A stretch of 28,796 nucleotides of DNA. Source: a virus. Its lineage: Duplodnaviria > Caudoviricetes. The stretch is from positions 1 through 28,796 of IMG/VR virus record IMGVR_UViG_3300017589_000077. One strand, given 5' to 3'. Below are positions 3,335 to 28,796 of the stretch, in pieces. Positions within the stretch are counted from its first letter, which is position 1. Every line of letters starts with the position of its first letter. Below the pieces are notes generated by a model, which worked only from the letters and a program-made list of their open reading frames with translations, was not told where the DNA came from and did not search any database. The translations under genes were made by a program, and so were the position numbers.

Positions 3335-3372
3335 AAAAAACCACTTCGGAAGTCGCATTCCGTTGTGGTTTT
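3335..3372 (-). terminator. Intrinsic terminator on the - strand, possibly bidirectional
   Basis: - strand reads AAAACCAC-AA-CGGAA-tgcgac-TTCCG-AA-GTGG-TTTTTT. Confidence 0.7.
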
Positions 3373-3398
3373 ACCGTAAAAACTATGTAATTAAGACT
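3335..3398 (-). ncRNA. Putative counter-transcribed antisense RNA (~65 nt) in the rep leader
   Basis: Bounded by a near-consensus - strand promoter and a - strand terminator; too short for a credible ORF. Confidence 0.55.
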
Positions 3399-3404
3399 AT
3401 TAAT

Positions 3405-3433
3405 ATTATATAGCAAATACGGCAAAAAGTCAA
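3405..3433 (-). promoter_or_regulatory. Sigma70/SigA-type promoter on the - strand
   Basis: TTGACT (3433-3428), 17-bp spacer, TATAAT (3410-3405). Confidence 0.75.
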
Positions 3434-3439
3434 GAAAAT

Positions 3440-3480
3440 AGGGGTTTTCAAGCCCCTGAATAACTTGATAAGTTTATTAT
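3440..3480 (+). other. Candidate rolling-circle double-strand origin (nick site)
   Basis: Hairpin AGGGGT-tttcaa-GCCCCT (3440-3457), then AACTTG^ATA within the mini-palindrome AACTT-GAT-AAGTT (3462-3474), about 35 bp upstream of the HUH rep. Confidence 0.5.
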
Positions 3481-3503
3481 CTTAACGACAAGGGTGACTA
3501 TAT

Positions 3504-4232
3504 ATGCCGTATATAAAAGAAACATGTAAGGCTGGAAAAACGAAAGAATACTGTTTTTATTATTCAAGAAGATTTCATGGTAAGAAGGAAGGTAAAAGAG
3601 AGAAAAAAGAGAATCCCACCAGCGAAGCACAAAAGAGAGTCAATATTAGACAGGCTGAACGAAAACTGACAAGAAAGATAAACGCTAATTTTACACCAGA
3701 TGATTATTATATAACACTGTTATACGATAAAGATGAAAGACCACAGGGCAAGGAAGAATTACAAAAGCACGTATCGGGATTTCTTCGTGATCTAAGAAAA
3801 GCATACAAACAGTGTGGAAAGGAATTGAAATATATTTGGGTTGCAGAGATTGGAGAGCGCGGAGCAGTTCACGTCCACATGGTAATTAACTGTATTGATA
3901 TACAGAGAATAAAAAAATTGTGGAAGTATGGACATATGCATATTGAACCAATGTATGAGGATGGAAACTATAGGAAGCTGGCTGCATATTTTATTAAATA
4001 CAGTGAAAAGACTTTAAATACAACAGGAGAGTTACAGGGTAAGCGATGGAACGCTTCAAAGAACCTTATTACACCGCCAGAAAGAAAAAGAATCATTAGA
4101 TCACGGGATCATTACAGCTGTGACATCAAAGTACCAGAAGGTTGGTATCTTGATAAAGATTCTATCCGTGAAGGGATTCACGAAATAACAGGGTATTCGT
4201 ATTTCAATTACACATTAGTAAAACTTGAATGA
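3504..4232 (+). CDS. HUH-family rolling-circle replication initiator-like protein
   Basis: RCR motif I YITLLY, motif II GAVHVHMVI (HUH), motif III LAAYFIKY (YxxK); basic protein; AAGGGTG RBS. Confidence 0.82.
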   Translation: MPYIKETCKAGKTKEYCFYYSRRFHGKKEGKREKKENPTSEAQKRVNIRQAERKLTRKINANFTPDDYYITLLYDKDERPQGKEELQKHVSGFLRDLRKAYKQCGKELKYIWVAEIGERGAVHVHMVINCIDIQRIKKLWKYGHMHIEPMYEDGNYRKLAAYFIKYSEKTLNTTGELQGKRWNASKNLITPPERKRIIRSRDHYSCDIKVPEGWYLDKDSIREGIHEITGYSYFNYTLVKLE

Positions 4233-4286
4233 AAAGAGGTATTAAATGCTAATGAATTCTTTGAAAGATTACATGAAAGAGAAAGT

Positions 4287-4544
4287 ATGAAAATTAAAGC
4301 ACAATTTTATGAAGAGTATGAAAGGAAAACAAGACCCAAAATTCCAAAATGTTTATTTAATACAGAGATTGAAAGATTAGTGGGAATTGTATCACCAAGT
4401 AGGCTTACATTTGAACTGATCAAAGGGAATGAAGACGTATTTAAGTTTTTAAAAGAACAGAGAAAATATGAGAACTATATGAGATCAACAAATAGACAGC
4501 AATGGAAATCATTCTATAGATCCGTAAGAATCGAGCGTATTTAA
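4287..4544 (+). CDS. Small basic hypothetical protein
   Basis: 85-aa ORF with a purine-rich upstream region. Confidence 0.6.
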   Translation: MKIKAQFYEEYERKTRPKIPKCLFNTEIERLVGIVSPSRLTFELIKGNEDVFKFLKEQRKYENYMRSTNRQQWKSFYRSVRIERI

Positions 4545-4591
4545 GTAATTATAAACATTTCATATGGCAAAAATAGAAATAAAGGAGAACT

Positions 4592-4978
4592 ATGCGTAAT
4601 TTAAAAGCAGGAGAAGATACAGAGCAGATTGGTGTCATTGAATGGGCAAACTGGAACAGAAGTAGATATCCAGAACTAGAACTTCTCTTTCATGTACCGA
4701 ATGGGGGAAAGCGATCAGCGATAGAAGCAGCACGATTTAAAGCTATGGGAGTAAAAGCGGGCGTACCGGATTTGATTTTACCAGTACCACGCGGGGGATA
4801 TGCTGGATTATTTATTGAAATGAAATACGGCAAGAATAAAACAACAACATTACAGGACTGGTGGCTGTCACAAATGATAAGACAAGGCTATAGAGCAACA
4901 GTATGTCACAGTGGGGTTGAAGCAACCGCAGTACTGGAAGAATATCTTAAAAAGCCAAAAACAACATGCCTGATATAA
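4592..4978 (+). CDS. VRR-NUC domain nuclease (PD-(D/E)xK fold)
   Basis: FHVPNGGKR...GVKAGVPDL...FIEMK...Q signature; AAAGGAG RBS. Confidence 0.9.
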   Translation: MRNLKAGEDTEQIGVIEWANWNRSRYPELELLFHVPNGGKRSAIEAARFKAMGVKAGVPDLILPVPRGGYAGLFIEMKYGKNKTTTLQDWWLSQMIRQGYRATVCHSGVEATAVLEEYLKKPKTTCLI

Positions 4979-5049
4979 GAGAAGTTGGAACGGACAAATC
5001 GTGAGATACATATAACCGTAATAAAATTATGTGAAGGGAAGGAAAGTGG

Positions 5050-5802
5050 ATGAAAGTAATATCAGTGATCAATTTAAAAGGTGGAGTTGCCAAAAGTACA
5101 ACTGCAATCAATGTTTCAGCAATACTAAACAGGGAGTATGGGAAAAGGATTCTTCTGATCGACAACGATAAGCAGGGTAATACAAGTAGATTTATGAATC
5201 ACTTTAATGCACAAGTCCAATGTGGCAGCAGTCGTATGTTAAACAGGGAACAACCAGTGATTTTTAAAATATGTGATGGATTCGACTTGATTGCTGCAAA
5301 TATGACTTTAGAATCAGCAGAATATAAAGTACTGGAAAGTAAAGATATCCAGTACAACAGGTACAGCGATGCATTGAAGCGTTATGAATCAGATTATGAT
5401 TATGTGATTATAGACAATGCACCAGCAGTAAGCATGTGCGTAATCAATGCACTTTATGCATCGAATGAAGTGATTATTCCTGTGAAGATAGATAACTGGG
5501 CTTTAGATGGTGTTGACGTTGTAGCAGAGCAGATCGAATCAATGAAGAAGCTAAACAGCACATTAACGATCAGGGGAATTTTAATTACAAATTTTGTAAA
5601 AAGTACTGTTAATCTGGCGGCAGAAGAATGGCTGAAAAATAATTGCAAACATAAAGTATTTGCAACAAAGATCAGAAACAGTAAGAAAGTGGATGAATCA
5701 ACGTTCTATAAACAGCCATTGATAGAGTTCAGCAAGACGTCAGCTGCATGTATAGACTATAAAAAGTTTGTGAAAGAATATTTAGAACTTGAAAAACGAT
5801 GA
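5050..5802 (+). CDS. parA: ParA/Soj family ATPase
   Basis: Deviant Walker A KGGVAKST, LLIDNDKQGN, YVIIDNAP, VIIPV. Confidence 0.92.
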   Translation: MKVISVINLKGGVAKSTTAINVSAILNREYGKRILLIDNDKQGNTSRFMNHFNAQVQCGSSRMLNREQPVIFKICDGFDLIAANMTLESAEYKVLESKDIQYNRYSDALKRYESDYDYVIIDNAPAVSMCVINALYASNEVIIPVKIDNWALDGVDVVAEQIESMKKLNSTLTIRGILITNFVKSTVNLAAEEWLKNNCKHKVFATKIRNSKKVDESTFYKQPLIEFSKTSAACIDYKKFVKEYLELEKR

Positions 5803-5836
5803 TTCAGGAAAGAAGACTGGAAAGGCAGGTATTACA

Positions 5837-6808
5837 ATGTCGGGATTTAATATACTTGATATTTTGAATGAGAAAAAGACAGCAGAAGCTATGACAGAAG
5901 GTTTTGAAGATATCAGCATGGACTACAAAGATATCATTGTAACGAAGCATAATAAGTACAGCATGAATGAAATCGAAGATCTTGCAACAGGCATTCACAT
6001 GGCAGGTGGACTGCAAGAACCTCTTGTACTTGGACGGGTAAATGGAGAATACTGGCTTGTATCTGGTCACAGAAGGATTGCGGCAATAGATATTCTTGTA
6101 AGAGAAGGAGAAGAAGCCTTTGCACAGGTTGCATGCAGATACAAAGATATGACAGAAACAGAATTTCGCATGCAGTTGTTAATCGGCAACACTTTTAACC
6201 GGAAAGATACTGACTATGACCGAATGATGGAAGCGCAGGAATGGAAAGCAATACTTGAACAGATGAAAGCGGATGGATCATTCAAGCCAGAAAAGGGCAG
6301 CAGGACAAGAGACTATGTTGCAAAAATCATGGGTGTTTCTTCTGGAACTATCGGTGATCTTGATAGAATCAGCAATAACGCAACAGATGAAGTCAAAGAA
6401 CAGCTAATGGAAGGAAATCTATCTTTGTCGGCAGCAGCAGAGACTAGCAGGCTTCCAGAAGAAGAACAAAATATAATTGCACAGGCAGCAGCAGCAGGGG
6501 AAGACATAAAGTGTACAGAGATTCAGGCGATGGCAGATGCAAAAAAGAATGAACAAGATATTCAGATTGATCAGACAGAAGAAGATCATAGCAAAGCTAC
6601 ACTTGAACAGTTAAAAAATCATGTGTCAGATACCGACACAACTGAGGAAGAAAAAGAAAATGCAAGACGTCTGCATGCGCTGAAAATGCTTGAAAGGTAT
6701 TATATATATTTAAGCGATGAAGAAGTTAGAATTCTTGAAGCCATGCTGGAAGACTGTAAAAGAAGAAAACGTGAATATGGTTTAGAAGATTGTGGGGAAA
6801 CGATATGA
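5837..6808 (+). CDS. parB: ParB/Spo0J-like partition protein
   Basis: GLQEPLVL...LVSGHRR CTP-binding box, HTH-like RDYVAKIMGVSSGTI, directly after parA; likely start ATG 5837. Confidence 0.88.
   Translation: MSGFNILDILNEKKTAEAMTEGFEDISMDYKDIIVTKHNKYSMNEIEDLATGIHMAGGLQEPLVLGRVNGEYWLVSGHRRIAAIDILVREGEEAFAQVACRYKDMTETEFRMQLLIGNTFNRKDTDYDRMMEAQEWKAILEQMKADGSFKPEKGSRTRDYVAKIMGVSSGTIGDLDRISNNATDEVKEQLMEGNLSLSAAAETSRLPEEEQNIIAQAAAAGEDIKCTEIQAMADAKKNEQDIQIDQTEEDHSKATLEQLKNHVSDTDTTEEEKENARRLHALKMLERYYIYLSDEEVRILEAMLEDCKRRKREYGLEDCGETI
6622..6640. repeat. Imperfect 19-bp palindrome TGTGTCAGA-T-ACCGACACA (candidate parS) inside parB
   Basis: 17/19 identical to the perfect palindrome at 12927-12945. 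Confidence 0.55.
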
Positions 6809-7080
6809 AAATAATCATTACGATTGAGCATGAAGGTACAGAATTAACACCAGCGATTCAGCTTGAAGGAAGTACCTGTGAAACAAGCTGTAATTGTGAG
6901 GAAAGTACAGCCAGAGAAAAAGAATCAAAGCCGGAAGTGGTTATGAGCAGAGATCATCAGGCAAGATATGATATAGCTTCGGATCTTGCAAATGTTTGTG
7001 AATATCTGGAAGAAGCAGAAATTATGAAATTAAAGTTGATAATACAGAAATGTGAAGGGAGAAGGAAGCAGGAACGATGA
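6805..7080 (+). CDS. Hypothetical protein
   Basis: ATGA overlaps with both parB and the next gene. Confidence 0.65.
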   Translation: MKIIITIEHEGTELTPAIQLEGSTCETSCNCEESTAREKESKPEVVMSRDHQARYDIASDLANVCEYLEEAEIMKLKLIIQKCEGRRKQER

Positions 7081-7304
7081 TAATAATAATTGCAGTAATA
7101 ATATTTGGGTATATTGAAGCCGCAATAATAACCGGAGTTTATATGTATTTAGTGACATGGGATAAGTCACCCGAGCCACTTAATAAGGACAATGAAACGA
7201 ATTCGAAACAAATTACAAGATTAAGCGTGGCAGCAGGAATATTGTTTCCTGTAACACTTGCAATATTATTAGCGTATGCGCTTGCAGAAAGGAGAAAGAG
7301 ATAA
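7077..7304 (+). CDS. Small membrane protein (two predicted TM segments)
   Basis: Two hydrophobic stretches; ATGA coupling. Confidence 0.65.
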   Translation: MIIIIAVIIFGYIEAAIITGVYMYLVTWDKSPEPLNKDNETNSKQITRLSVAAGILFPVTLAILLAYALAERRKR

Positions 7305-7396
7305 TGGCAATCAATTTAACAGCTGTAATTATTACAGCAATCATTTGTACTTCAATCTGCTTTATGGCATGGATTGGAAACAGTAAAAAGAAATAG
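7304..7396 (+). CDS. 30-aa single-TM peptide MAINLTAVIITAIICTSICFMAWIGNSKKK
   Basis: TAATG overlap and GAAAGGAG RBS; below the ORF-track length cutoff. Confidence 0.6.
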   Translation: MAINLTAVIITAIICTSICFMAWIGNSKKK

Positions 7397-7411
7397 CAGG
7401 AAGGAACAGCA

Positions 7412-7837
7412 ATGAATAAAGTTATTATCATGGGACGCTTAACTAAAGATCCTGGTGTAAAGTGGTTAGAAGGTAACAGTTCACAAGACCAGACATGCAT
7501 TGCCAAATATACATTAGCGGTAGATAGAAGATTCGGGGATAATGGAGCAGATTATATTGATTGCGTCGCGTTTGGTAAAGCTGGGACATTTGCTGAAAAG
7601 TACTTGAAAAAGGGAACGAAGATTGTAGTCACAGGAAGAATTCAGACGGGAAGCTATACAAATAAAAATGGCATAAAAATATATACGATGGACGTCGTTG
7701 TTGAAGATCAAGAATTCGCTGAAAATAAATCACAAAATCAGGGAAGAGAATCAGACGGTCAGAATAGTTCAAGTGACATGTCGGAAGGCTTCATGAATAT
7801 TCCAGATGGAATTGACGAAGAATTGCCATTCACTTAA
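7412..7837 (+). CDS. ssb: Single-stranded DNA-binding protein
   Basis: MNKVIIMGRLTKDP N-terminus, YLKKGTKIVVTGRIQT, acidic DEELPF tail. Confidence 0.96.
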   Translation: MNKVIIMGRLTKDPGVKWLEGNSSQDQTCIAKYTLAVDRRFGDNGADYIDCVAFGKAGTFAEKYLKKGTKIVVTGRIQTGSYTNKNGIKIYTMDVVVEDQEFAENKSQNQGRESDGQNSSSDMSEGFMNIPDGIDEELPFT

Positions 7838-8469: not shown

Positions 8470-8549
8470 GCACATAACTTTCCTTCTGTCAGTATCGTTG
8501 AAGCTGATCACAACAACGGTACTGACAAAAACAAAGCGGGTGTAACGAA

Positions 8550-12204: not shown

Positions 12205-13074
12205 GTGAAGCAGAAGCAAACACAGTATTGTTTCAAACAGGAAGCAAACAGTAATGTTCATAAACTTTATATTTATGATGATGTTACAGAATATGGTGAG
12301 CTTGACTGGTGGACATGGGAGTATACGGAATCAGAAACAAGCGCAGAGTATTTTAGAAAAGCTTTAGAAGCGATACCAGATACAGACACGATTGAACTGC
12401 ATATTAATTCATATGGTGGATCTGTAAAAGAGGGTGTTGCAATCTATAACCAGTTAAAGCGTAAGAATTGCAAGGAGATCATCGCATATGTTGATGGATT
12501 TGCGTATTCAATCGCTTCTGTCATTTTACAGGCAGCAGATAGAAGAATCATGGGACTGGGAACAAGTCTTTTGATTCATAACATGTGGATCAGTACGACT
12601 GGTAATGCAGAAGATTTGAGAAAAGCAGCAGACGATCTGGACATACTTATGGAAAGTAACAGGCAAATTTATCTTGAACGGGCAACAATTACAGAAGATG
12701 AACTGATTGAAATCATGGCAAAGGAAACATACTTAACGCCAGATCAGGCAATATCAATGGGATTTGCTGATGAAGTAGAGTCAAGAACCGGAAGTAAAAC
12801 AGAAGATCCAGCAATTATGCAGCAAAAATTATTACAGCAGCTTGCAAATATGCGTTGTGAAATGAATGCACAAAAATCTTTTAGAGAAGAACTATCAAAA
12901 CTGCATCAGTCAACGCAACAAAAAAATGTGTCAGATTCTGACACAGGGGAAGAACCTGAGGAAGATACAGGAGATAGTAAAGAAACCACAGAAACTAAAG
13001 AAGAAGTTAACAACTCTATGGCTGCATTAATTGCAATGGCAGCAGCAAGAACATTGAAGAGCGAAAGGAATTAA
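12205..13074 (+). CDS. ClpP-family head maturation protease
   Basis: HINSYGGSV, DGFAYSIAS (catalytic Ser), LIHN (His), ETYLTPDQAISMGFAD. Confidence 0.93.
   Translation: MKQKQTQYCFKQEANSNVHKLYIYDDVTEYGELDWWTWEYTESETSAEYFRKALEAIPDTDTIELHINSYGGSVKEGVAIYNQLKRKNCKEIIAYVDGFAYSIASVILQAADRRIMGLGTSLLIHNMWISTTGNAEDLRKAADDLDILMESNRQIYLERATITEDELIEIMAKETYLTPDQAISMGFADEVESRTGSKTEDPAIMQQKLLQQLANMRCEMNAQKSFREELSKLHQSTQQKNVSDSDTGEEPEEDTGDSKETTETKEEVNNSMAALIAMAAARTLKSERN
12927..12945. repeat. Perfect 19-bp palindrome TGTGTCAGA-T-TCTGACACA (candidate parS)
   Basis: 9-bp perfect arms, in the low-complexity C-terminal linker of the protease gene. Confidence 0.6.
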
Positions 13075-26576: not shown

Positions 26577-26614
26577 TATAATAAATAAAATTGAAAGCAG
26601 AAGGGATAATACGG

Positions 26615-27472
26615 ATGCAGTTTATTAATGAATTTCTAAAAAGTTGGAGAAAAAGCACAGCTGAAAAAATATCATTTTGGCTATTTATTGCAAGTTTGAT
26701 TATGGCGATTATTGCATTTATGCCATATGGTTTTTTTGATGAAAATACAACGAACAATATAAATAATGTTTTAATTGGTCTTGCGACAAACATGATAGGA
26801 ATCATTATAACAATTTCTTTTGTTCAATATTTTTTAGATATTCAGAAAACAAAAAATGAACGTGAGGAAGAAGAAAAATTACTTATCAGATCATATAGAA
26901 GTATAAAGTTTATAATTGATAGATATACAATTTATTTTTATAGAATTACAACGCCATTTGCAAAAGATCAAGACGATGAATTTATATTAAAAGAGGAATT
27001 TAGTTTTGAAGATATGTGTGATATGCATTATATATCAGCAAGCATGTATGATCATATTTTTGATTCTTCTATATCTTTATTTTTTAAACAAGAGTATATT
27101 TTAAGGGAAAGTTTTTTATCTATACTTAATCATAACCAATTGAAATATAACAATGCTATTTTAGAAATATTAAGCCAATTTTTAGAACAATCATTTGAAA
27201 ATGATTTTAGTGGATTTATACTTGGAATGGACAAAGGACAATTCAGTGAAAAAAGACATTGCGATCAATTTATTAGAATGATAAAAGAATCTGGAAGCGA
27301 TTATATAAAAAGATATAACAATGAAGATACAACATTAGAATCAAATGGAATATTACCATATATACGTCTGTACTTTTTATTGAAAGAAGAAGCGAAACTT
27401 ATAAATAAATTTAAAACTGAAATGGAAAAATTAGTAATGAAATATGAAACAAAGCAGTATGACGCAGTATGA
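26615..27472 (+). CDS. AT-rich accessory protein with two N-terminal TM segments
   Basis: Two hydrophobic helices then a soluble helical domain; visibly more AT-rich than the structural genes. Confidence 0.75.
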   Translation: MQFINEFLKSWRKSTAEKISFWLFIASLIMAIIAFMPYGFFDENTTNNINNVLIGLATNMIGIIITISFVQYFLDIQKTKNEREEEEKLLIRSYRSIKFIIDRYTIYFYRITTPFAKDQDDEFILKEEFSFEDMCDMHYISASMYDHIFDSSISLFFKQEYILRESFLSILNHNQLKYNNAILEILSQFLEQSFENDFSGFILGMDKGQFSEKRHCDQFIRMIKESGSDYIKRYNNEDTTLESNGILPYIRLYFLLKEEAKLINKFKTEMEKLVMKYETKQYDAV

Positions 27473-27556
27473 AATGGTATGCGTAACAGACGAACAACTG
27501 ACAACTGACAAATGGAAGCCCATTTAAACAGTATTCGTACTTATCAAGGAGGGAAT

Positions 27557-28468
27557 GTGGGAGAAAATACTTTAATTATAAATACACTTAACGAATTGAT
27601 TGATTTATTCAAACCGGGAGGAATTCTCGATGAGTTTCGCAAAAAAGGATATGTTTTTAGGGGTGAAGCAGATAGTACATGGAAATTGATTCCAAATCTA
27701 CTAAGAAATGGTAACTCTACAAAACTTCATGAAGCTGCATACAATATTTGTTATATAGATGATGAAGATGAAAAAAATGAAATAACACCAGAAATATATT
27801 TGCGAAAAGAAGAAGCATATGTTTTGAATAAGTTTTATGAGTGTTCCAACATTAATGGATTAAAAATACCAAATGTTGATATTTATTCACAAAAAGGAAG
27901 CAATATAAATGATGAATGGTATTCGGAAGGATATCAAGAAATTGCATCATTAGCACAACATTATGGAATGTACACAAGGATGTTGGATTGGACATATGAT
28001 ATATTTGTAGCGCTTTTTTTTGCATTTCGAGAAAGGTTAAAGAAAACAGATCTAAATGGAAATGTAAGAATTTGGATACTAAATAAAAATTATATTGAGA
28101 TTGATAATTTTGTTCCGTTAAAATTTGTTAGACCGCCATATTATAGTAACAAAAATATATCAGCACAAAAAGGCTTATTATCGTATTGGAAGATGAAGGG
28201 GATTTATGAACCACAAAATAATACGATTAACAGTAAACCAATAGATGTATTACTGTTTGAGTATTACAAAGACCTAATATATCCAATAATAGGAATGAAA
28301 TTTGAACATATTTTGGACGCGATAGAAATCAATCCTAAGATATGTAGCGAAGGAATCAGATGGCTGGATAGTATTGGATACAATGCTGCTAGAATATTCC
28401 CGGGATATGTAGGAGTGAAAGAGTATATCTATGATGATAGATATTTATATGCAGAAGAAAATAAATAG
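27557..28468 (+). CDS. FRG domain protein
   Basis: YVFRGEADSTWKLIPNLLR, AQHYGMYTRMLDWT...ALFFA, NISAQKG; GTG start after AGGAGG. Confidence 0.9.
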   Translation: MGENTLIINTLNELIDLFKPGGILDEFRKKGYVFRGEADSTWKLIPNLLRNGNSTKLHEAAYNICYIDDEDEKNEITPEIYLRKEEAYVLNKFYECSNINGLKIPNVDIYSQKGSNINDEWYSEGYQEIASLAQHYGMYTRMLDWTYDIFVALFFAFRERLKKTDLNGNVRIWILNKNYIEIDNFVPLKFVRPPYYSNKNISAQKGLLSYWKMKGIYEPQNNTINSKPIDVLLFEYYKDLIYPIIGMKFEHILDAIEINPKICSEGIRWLDSIGYNAARIFPGYVGVKEYIYDDRYLYAEENK

Positions 28469-28796
28469 TATACATTAGTTATTTTTAGATCTAATAAGCA
28501 GTGATACAAGGGTATGGAGACTGTATAATATTTAGGAAGTAAAAATTAATCTTTAGAAGTGATGATTGCAACAATTCCACACTGGATAAATACTTAAATT
28601 ACTGTAAAAGGAATTGATTTATTTAATATAAAATGAAATGTATTATAATAAGGAAGAAATGGTTGCAACAGAATGATAAAAATACTAAAATCAGTATAAA
28701 AATATATAAAAGCACAACGGTATACCACAAGTAATACACAAACGACTAAACAATACCCATAAAATGGGAAATGACAGTTTCAATTGAAGAAGCAGC

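Follow-up and report, generated by a model that had tools for sequence, protein, structure and literature searches.

How a tailed phage that carries a plasmid-like replication gene close to partition genes copies and maintains its genome is the question raised by positions 3,335 to 7,837 of the virus record IMGVR_UViG_3300017589_000077. The record, which is linear and ~81% complete, was analyzed over its whole length of 28,796 nt (the window), and the stretch in question encodes an HUH-type Rep protein (gene rep), ParA, ParB, and a single-stranded DNA-binding protein (SSB). An earlier note on this DNA proposed that these genes form one replication and partition module, in which a rolling-circle replicon under antisense RNA control is coupled to active partition, and that the phage may persist as an episome. 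On balance, our comparisons favor a different arrangement of the same parts, in which rep and its leader would constitute an antisense-limited, rolling-circle lytic replicon of a Lachnospiraceae-type siphophage that likely integrates and to which ParABS is accessory. The rolling-circle replicon with antisense control is thus upheld, by a conserved leader, the lack of a match to any rival initiator family searched, and a predicted pairing switch.

The Rep protein and its predicted origin

The rep gene (3504..4232, plus strand) is a 242-amino-acid (aa) open reading frame (ORF) that encodes an HUH Rep of the two-tyrosine type (T71; H123/H125; Y162-x-x-K165-Y166). It matches PF23343 (expectation value [E] 5.7e-21) and phrog_3584, “replication initiation protein” (E 3e-57). 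An alignment of 46 homologues shows no variation at H123, H125, Y162, or K165 and conservation of at least 90% at T71 (motif I) and Y166, which bears out the earlier assignment of this protein as an HUH Rep with rolling-circle replication motifs. A structure model (pLDDT 90.8) places the HUH motif, H123/H125, on the strand 122–128 and Y-x-x-K-Y on the helix 157–174. In a fold search against the PDB the best match was PCV2 Rep, with a weak E of 2.9e-3, followed by many HUH Reps, and among predicted structures the matches were siphovirus and microvirus initiators, with E down to 4e-7. Rep is predicted to act as a site-specific nicking enzyme and to give rise to single-stranded DNA intermediates. 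Its family spans 223 clusters in a protein search and, in one scan each, 313 IMG/VR stretches and 130 in GTDB genomes; it includes the cultured phages Arawn, Idris, Closwp03, phiCs5676-1, phiS63, and phiSM101. A scan of metagenomes found no relative of more than 66% identity over the full Rep. Loci L224–L235 encode a distant PF23343-type Rep of ~290 aa that looks single-tyrosine (LATYITQN), have a different leader, and carry parA-parB with the same palindrome as the window directly 3′ of Rep.

The earlier note had also remarked that no other initiator is visible in the window, an observation that is insufficient by itself for an 81% fragment. We therefore turn to related records, 50 of 81 viral loci picked by record length, of which 25 are at least 90% complete. 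PF01695, PF07261, PF03796, and PF09681 (DnaC, DnaD, DnaB, and replisome organizer) each scored above the cut-off in 0/50 of these, and no initiator, helicase, or primase was found among 92 neighbor proteins scanned, a set from which 274 rare families of at least 220 aa were left out. Because neither search returned a competitor, Rep is very probably the replication initiator of this genome. That tailed phages can use rolling-circle initiators is not in itself a novelty: the practice is known from P2, and database labels already imply such a role.

A nick-type motif lies just upstream of rep. The predicted double-strand origin (3464..3481, plus strand) comprises CTTGATA (3464–3470) and the conserved TTATTATC, and by analogy the cut presumably falls between G3467 and A3468. 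Although bare CTTGATA is not diagnostic, with 16 copies in the window, the extended motif CTTGATAAGTTTATTATC (3464–3481) is the sole match of its own pattern there, and this pattern occurs 38 times in rep leaders versus 4 times elsewhere (2.1 Mb, both strands), in agreement with the motif noticed earlier. Its conservation was assessed in 56 leaders, drawn from 57 clusters at 80% Rep identity, 1 of which lacks 300 nt upstream. A relaxed nick motif is present in 43/56 (1.3 in shuffles) and the extended motif in 37/56 (0.1 in shuffles). The motif is of the phiX174/pC194 type; the available text of PMC10378824 gives CTTGATA as the conserved nick site of Rep_1/pC194, and the pC194 origin sequence appears in that of PMC7072734. 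By this sequence criterion a putative nick site adjoins the rep gene. Hairpin 2, a GC-rich inverted repeat without strand bias between the −35 box described below and the nick motif (3440..3457), is likely part of the origin. In one lineage (L069, L052, L073, L007) rep stands directly before the terminase gene and after a XerC-like gene; there a nick-like motif is kept, the antisense promoter is lacking, parAB lies upstream, and the palindrome sits inside the portal gene.

A counter-oriented promoter and a predicted switch at the rep start

The leader also contains the promoter and terminator, oriented against rep, that the earlier note had pointed out. The promoter, TTGACT(3433)-17-TATAAT(3405), is of the sigma-A type with 11/12 matches and is directed away from rep (3405..3433, minus strand). 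Hairpin 1 and its U-run (3337..3372, minus strand) form a predicted intrinsic terminator, called at 3362–3347. With a start taken to lie ~7 nt past the −10 box, the predicted antisense RNA is ~63 nt long (3335..3398, minus strand). These elements are conserved across Reps of 27–69% identity: a relaxed pattern finds the counter promoter in 42/56 leaders (3.7 in shuffles), and the gap from −35 box to nick is 29–33 nt in 29/31 leaders that have both promoter and nick motif. Under a strict definition, 22 of the 24 minus-strand promoter-plus-terminator units in 1.06 Mb are at rep, whereas the terminator unit follows plus-strand promoters in 0/28 cases. The wobble pairs of hairpin 1 favor the minus strand (25 versus 4, p=1e-4), as a terminator requires, in the 39/56 leaders that have a promoter with a 17-nt spacer and enough flank. 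Since the promoter and terminator are conserved at rep and hairpin 1 is biased toward the minus strand, an antisense RNA of 55–70 nt is predicted. Rfam holds no family that matches the rep leader or this RNA.

The sequence of the promoter spacer varies freely, yet on the plus strand its complementarity to two other parts of the leader is kept. One is arm A (3369..3394, plus strand), the putative anti-sequestrator, a stretch between the terminator and the −10 box that the antisense RNA would cover; the second is the region around the rep start. The spacer and flanking promoter bases, read on the mRNA, form arm B (3405..3433, plus strand), in which ATACGGCA (3417–3424) is complementary to TGCCGTAT (3505–3512) at the rep start codon. 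The pairing score of arm A with arm B is 19.6 for a leader's own arms versus 12.8 for crossed ones, and the own partner is best in 14/39 leaders (~1 expected). For the duplex of arm B with the start, computed for the 35 leaders that remain once 4/39 without an aligned start are set aside, the energy is −13.5 kcal/mol for own and −10.9 for crossed pairs (p=4e-4), with controls at −8.9 (shuffled) and −9.6 kcal/mol (inner rep windows). The antisense RNA would leave arm B uncovered, because arm B is the RNA's own promoter. We modeled the antisense-bound state by forcing the part of the leader that the RNA covers to be unpaired. In this model the cost of opening the start rises by a mean of +2.9 kcal/mol, with 25/35 leaders more closed and 5/35 more open, and leaders whose arm B–start pairing exceeds 0.5 increase from 9 to 31 of 35; with swapped arm B the gain falls to +0.4 kcal/mol (p=3e-5). 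The window's own start-opening cost goes from 6.7 to 12.4. Modeling of these leader pairings suggests that the antisense RNA probably switches off Rep translation. What is new here is the prediction that the antisense promoter's own spacer, once on the mRNA, pairs either with the antisense-covered stretch or with the rep start.

In the mechanism we propose, the early operon would be transcribed through 3335–3503 into rep after infection or induction. Arms A and B are predicted to pair while the mRNA is being made, so that the rep start stays open. The sigma-A promoter within arm B would then yield the ~63-nt antisense RNA, which covers hairpin 1 and arm A; with this RNA bound, arm B would pair with the ribosome-binding site and start codon of rep, and translation would be off. 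Such a switch would stop leaky Rep from nicking the chromosome of the lysogen and would cap Rep as genome copies rise. Judging from its family, Rep would nick CTTG^ATA 37 nt 5′ of its own gene, a host helicase and polymerase would extend from the nick, the two tyrosines would cut and rejoin, and the phage SSB would coat the displaced strand. In the last step, the weakest of the scheme, ParB would load on GTGTC-N7-GACAC and, with ParA, position or segregate excised or incoming circles.

Other readings of the leader have to be weighed against this switch. Arms A and B might work as DNA, rebuilding a promoter on the displaced plus strand from which RNA polymerase would prime the lagging strand, as in an ssoA-like single-strand origin. 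Both the strand and the position, just 5′ of the nick and displaced last, are right for this role, the spacing to the nick is fixed at 29–33 nt, the window's DNA fold has z=−4.1, and the fold-back leans toward the plus strand (24 G-T versus 12 A-C, p=0.065). However, the −35 box is seldom in the stem (0.03–0.28, versus 0.66–0.90 at arm positions 6–18), it being the −10 box and spacer that pair; the conserved U-tailed terminator would release the primer; and the match of arm B to the rep start is left unexplained. A single-strand origin is thus improbable in place of the switch, and it could be a second role, not an alternative. Slighter still is the chance that the RNA acts on transcription, whether by counter-transcription or attenuation at hairpin 2 that blocks read-through into rep or by supercoiling and opening the origin. 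Against it, GAATAA rather than a U-run comes after hairpin 2 in the window, hairpin 2 is without strand bias, and the result with swapped arms argues for pairing to the start region that depends on sequence; for it, some leaders do have a short T-run after hairpin 2, the distance from promoter to nick is fixed, and pT181 and pIP501 use attenuation, as set out in the available part of PMC5703833. We consider it very improbable that Rep is a passenger, the relic of a satellite or mobile element, with the true initiator unrecognized in the missing 7 kb: its catalytic residues and origin are intact in phages from Butyrivibrio to Clostridium, and none of the tested initiators occurs in the 25 records that are at least 90% complete. 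What speaks for a passenger is the 81% completeness of the record, together with three loci (L088, L141, L150) that have Rep and an integrase with no phage head genes recognized nearby and are possible satellites or integrative elements.

ParABS, integration, and the episome question

The assignments of parA, parB, and ssb made in the earlier note are confirmed. ParA (5050..5802, plus strand; family searches) is Soj-like, has no N-terminal extension, and carries the Walker A variant KGGVAKS, GVAK being the commonest Walker A form in the ParA family. The ParB-like protein (5789..6808, plus strand; likely start ATG 5837) has a CTP-box-like motif, SGHRRIAA; its Pfam match is below the cut-off, and it matches phrog_4715 with E 1e-38. 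The G-x-R-R-x-x-A box is found in 83/93 members of its family. Family f23, considered as an orphan ParB, was rejected, as the CTP-box motif is absent in 25/25. The ssb gene (7412..7837, plus strand) was identified by family searches.

Palindromes resembling parS had been noted as well, a claim that holds for one 17-mer and fails for generic palindromes, which are at chance level in the window (30, versus 21–37 in shuffles). Moreover, only one of the two copies of that 17-mer lies within 3,335–7,837. Palindrome 1, GTGTCAGATACCGACAC (6623..6639), is inside parB, and palindrome 2, GTGTCAGATTCTGACAC (12928..12944), is inside the Clp head-protease gene. Their common pattern, the 17-bp GTGTC-N7-GACAC, occurs twice in the window versus 0.13 times expected, a count from a pattern written after both sites had been seen, so that the real tests are its association with parB and the records picked by palindrome. 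The pattern is present in 13/19 clusters with parB versus 2/38 without it (p=9e-7), and in 17/18 loci fetched with ParB (16 plus the lineage of L037; L237 has the gene's end only). Its codons are fixed as GTG and GAC in 11/11, versus 25% and 42% in the background. An exact match occurs in about 1,100 viral stretches. A palindrome search gave 131 loci; from the first 80 of these 37 were chosen and 36 searched, with ParA found in 28/36 (a count without a background rate for random phages), the Rep family in 21/36, a tyrosine recombinase in 14/36, and ParA without a Rep match in 7. The window has no match with fewer than three mismatches to what we take to be the canonical Firmicute parS consensus. 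As far as these associations go, the palindrome is likely a parS of its own kind and a candidate new specificity. One locus, L141, has palindromes with no parAB in view. Taken as a whole, ParABS looks real and modular.

The earlier idea of a single replication and partition module is partly borne out, in that its parts are real but not contiguous: the Rep–parAB–ssb run is broken up by the gene for a VRR-NUC nuclease and by three small ORFs, one of them of 85 aa. Nor does the supposed coupling of partition to the replicon hold up among relatives. With at least 7 kb downstream available, parA and parB stand beside Rep in 72/127 loci and 16/44 clusters, and a tree of 49 tips shows 11 changes of the parAB label, a count inflated by short loci. 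Thus, a survey of Rep homologues of the kind suggested earlier finds co-conservation of the leader elements but not of parAB. Many Rep clusters without parAB (L111, L107, L109, L045, and others) have in the same position a block of RNase H, a PcfJ-like gene, and an unknown gene, and the f23 gene and parAB show zero co-occurrence in 45 clusters. By their placement in the sequence, rep, parA, and parB are co-oriented inside the early, lytic gene run of the window; in relatives, too, the lytic strand carries parAB, with the repressor gene upstream of it.

Neither an integrase nor a repressor was found within the window, and in relatives both are found to the left of the early genes, a region that this record lacks. 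The left end is short by about 7 kb. The window's sisters on the tree are L002, with integrase, repressor, and parAB, and L088; its nearest relatives L002 and L035 bear an integrase, as does G018, which holds the nearest ParB relative, and the integrases of the closest Rep and closest ParB relatives are of the tyrosine type. Across the 50 related records 27 have a tyrosine recombinase and 23 are classed as provirus, and 47/80 genome loci are in contigs longer than 60 kb. We regard it as likely that the window phage integrates. G041 was rejected as a free circle, its end repeat being only 78% identical.

The main competitor is a dual life, or a true phage-plasmid, in which antisense-limited rolling-circle replication and ParABS would maintain the genome in episomal form at low copy number, during part of its life or all of it. 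In favor of this, an episome of low copy number needs both antisense copy control and ParABS, ParA is carried by all 21 Rep-positive records among the 36 picked by palindrome, distant Rep homologues are present on 5-kb plasmids, and the left end of the window is missing. Yet parAB is optional, and in relatives its place is with the lytic genes. Among the 14 ParA-positive records with a completeness of 90% or more, a tyrosine recombinase match is present in 9; a further 4 are classed as provirus, and the remaining one carries an IS30 transposase. In phiSM101 and a circular phage of P. sordellii, this Rep is in the lytic operon while separate partition genes are in the lysogeny region, and phiSM101 has a separate plasmid Rep in addition. 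In mycobacterial phages a parABS cassette replaces the integrase, according to the available text of PMC7157519; here both co-occur. Because parAB is optional, relatives have integrases or are proviruses, and true phage-plasmids use separate partition genes, a plasmid lysogen is unlikely here, and the episomal persistence proposed earlier is not supported; a circle that is partitioned for a short time may still occur. The phage itself is unlikely to have a plasmid life, since its relatives reside mostly in bacterial chromosomes. We would add, as the weakest of these points, that ParABS may not be the lysogen's main maintenance system.

Several points weigh against an antisense-limited replicon in an integrating phage. 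The promoter pattern is missing from 14/56 leaders, including that of the cultured phage Arawn, and the switch is therefore not universal. In 9/35 leaders, the window among them (0.89), arm B and the start are already paired at equilibrium without antisense RNA, so that co-transcriptional folding must be assumed; the own arm B–start pairing ranks in the top 3 for only 10/35. Clusters at 80% identity are related, not independent, which makes the p-values optimistic. No solved structure matched Rep at E≤1e-3, and a PDB sequence search was empty. The whole-record search for initiators comprised four families only, with no primase family among them. As to integration, which we infer from relatives because the window's lysogeny module would lie in the missing part, some of the tyrosine recombinase (PF00589) matches are a second, XerC-like gene and not an integrase, whereas among the 23/50 records without such a match at least one integrase was missed (L040/G021). 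Separately, in G029 (L170–L171), a complete 34.5-kb record with terminal repeats, Rep is present and no integrase or parA was found; this record also bears an IS91-type transposase and a Tad2-like anti-defense gene.

An arrangement outside the window, in related genomes, deserves separate mention. Seven related Rep–ParABS prophages (L132/L196 in G062, L118/L199 in G051, L094/L375 in G057, L092/L376 in G069, and those in G052, G064, and G065) show neither a tyrosine nor a serine integrase within the flanks that were read, and all 7/7 genomes have an IS30-family transposase at the end. In four of the seven, inverted repeats (core TCGCATTTAAT) enclose the whole prophage, together with a direct repeat of ~15 nt of host DNA that differs from genome to genome. 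This suggests integration of the whole phage by the IS30 DDE transposase. In the literature searched no phage with whole-phage IS30 integration was described, and this prediction is possibly more novel than that for the rep leader.

Genome context, known systems, and significance

The genes of the window follow the order early genes, rep, VRR-NUC, parA, parB, ssb, activator, HNH, terminase, portal, Clp protease, HK97-type capsid, tail, and lysin, and then two accessory genes. The VRR-NUC nuclease (4592..4978, plus strand), which is resolvase-like, is a usual neighbor of Rep and parAB, its family being present in 91/166 clustered loci. A strong inverted repeat with 23-nt arms (83%) at 8478–8536, immediately 5′ of the HNH gene, is likely part of a late-operon leader. 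The HNH–terminase–HK97 gene set points to cos packaging, and phiS63, whose Rep is of the same family, has proven 3′ cohesive ends according to the available text of PMC3442830. The two genes 3′ of the lysin gene (26591–28468) are low in GC; one encodes a 293-aa membrane protein with no family match and the other an FRG-domain protein that matches the defense candidate PDC-S15 (E 4e-29). A 34,279-nt contig from run X1, ~91–93% alike, has a different 1.4-kb insert at this position, which is thus a variable accessory slot. The same contig extends ~7.1 kb beyond window position 1551 and shares the noncoding right end of the window (28553–28796), with an identical endpoint; the same endpoint in two assemblies would fit an attachment junction. 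Short repeats at ~28720–28750 may be integrase arm sites.

Each part of this system has precedent. The bacteriophages P2 and phiX174 have gpA proteins that are two-tyrosine HUH initiators and nick next to or in their own gene, and P2 is a temperate tailed phage with rolling-circle replication. P2 gpA is much larger than 242 aa, and we know of no antisense leader or ParABS in P2; by contrast, the window Rep belongs to an HK97-type siphophage of Clostridia with both. P1 is a parABS plasmid-prophage. Closer to the window, the Reps of Arawn (Butyrivibrio), phiCs5676-1 (Clostridium scindens), phiS63, and phiSM101 (Clostridium perfringens) are 32–43% identical to it and likewise encoded in the early lytic operon, and several are labeled “replication initiation protein” in RefSeq/GenBank. 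Whereas phiCs5676-1, phiS63, and phiSM101 retain the counter promoter and terminator, Arawn is without the promoter, and none of the four has a parA-parB pair of the window's type beside Rep. The word “rolling” is absent from the main text, as available, of PMC7372960 and PMC3442830.

Small counter-transcribed RNAs that flip the pairing of a leader so that Rep is not made are described for pSK41 (RNAI), pT181 (RNAI), and pIP501 (RNAIII) in the available part of PMC5703833. In pSK41, according to the same source, binding of an 83-nt RNA ~100 nt upstream leads to a stem in which the ribosome-binding site is occluded, the form of sequestration predicted in the window leader; the pSK41 Rep is a RepA_N initiator, unlike the HUH Rep of the window. 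The window differs from all three plasmids in that it belongs to a probable integrating phage, its sequestering arm is the antisense promoter's spacer, and its leader includes the nick site. Mycobacterial cluster A phages (PMC7157519, available text) and phiSM101 are temperate phages in which, as in the window, a ParA ATPase is joined by a dedicated palindrome and by a ParB whose sequence includes a CTP-box-like motif. In cluster A, however, parABS replaces the integration cassette (same source), whereas among the window's kin it co-occurs with integrases and belongs to the lytic operon, and the parS-like sites lie inside coding genes (parB, head protease, portal). The literature searched, which excluded supplements and most subscription papers, gave no account of the leader, the palindrome, their combination, or rolling-circle replication in these phages. 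The combination that the earlier note called unusual is accordingly one that we did not find in print, but it is common among these phages.

Collectively, the analysis predicts that a phage initiator is under antisense control in the manner of plasmids, through a compact layout whose promoter, sequestering arm, and origin overlap. For the many temperate phages of this group, from Lachnospiraceae and other Clostridia, it offers a replication mechanism that can be tested. If true, this would explain how a prophage safely carries a nicking enzyme and its own target in the chromosome, and it would provide a route to superinfection exclusion that is independent of the repressor. A bolder reading, which we hold to be doubtful, is that a widespread group of Lachnospiraceae siphophages has, besides integration and lysis, a third and intermediate state. 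This would be a 35–40-kb circle copied by rolling-circle replication, with its copy number under antisense RNA control and its partition driven by ParABS, and the trans-acting RNA would set incompatibility groups as in plasmids; a resident prophage would then block Rep in any incoming phage with the same leader, irrespective of the repressor that this phage carries. The 0.9-kb unit of leader and rep could also seed vectors for gut anaerobes that are hard to engineer.

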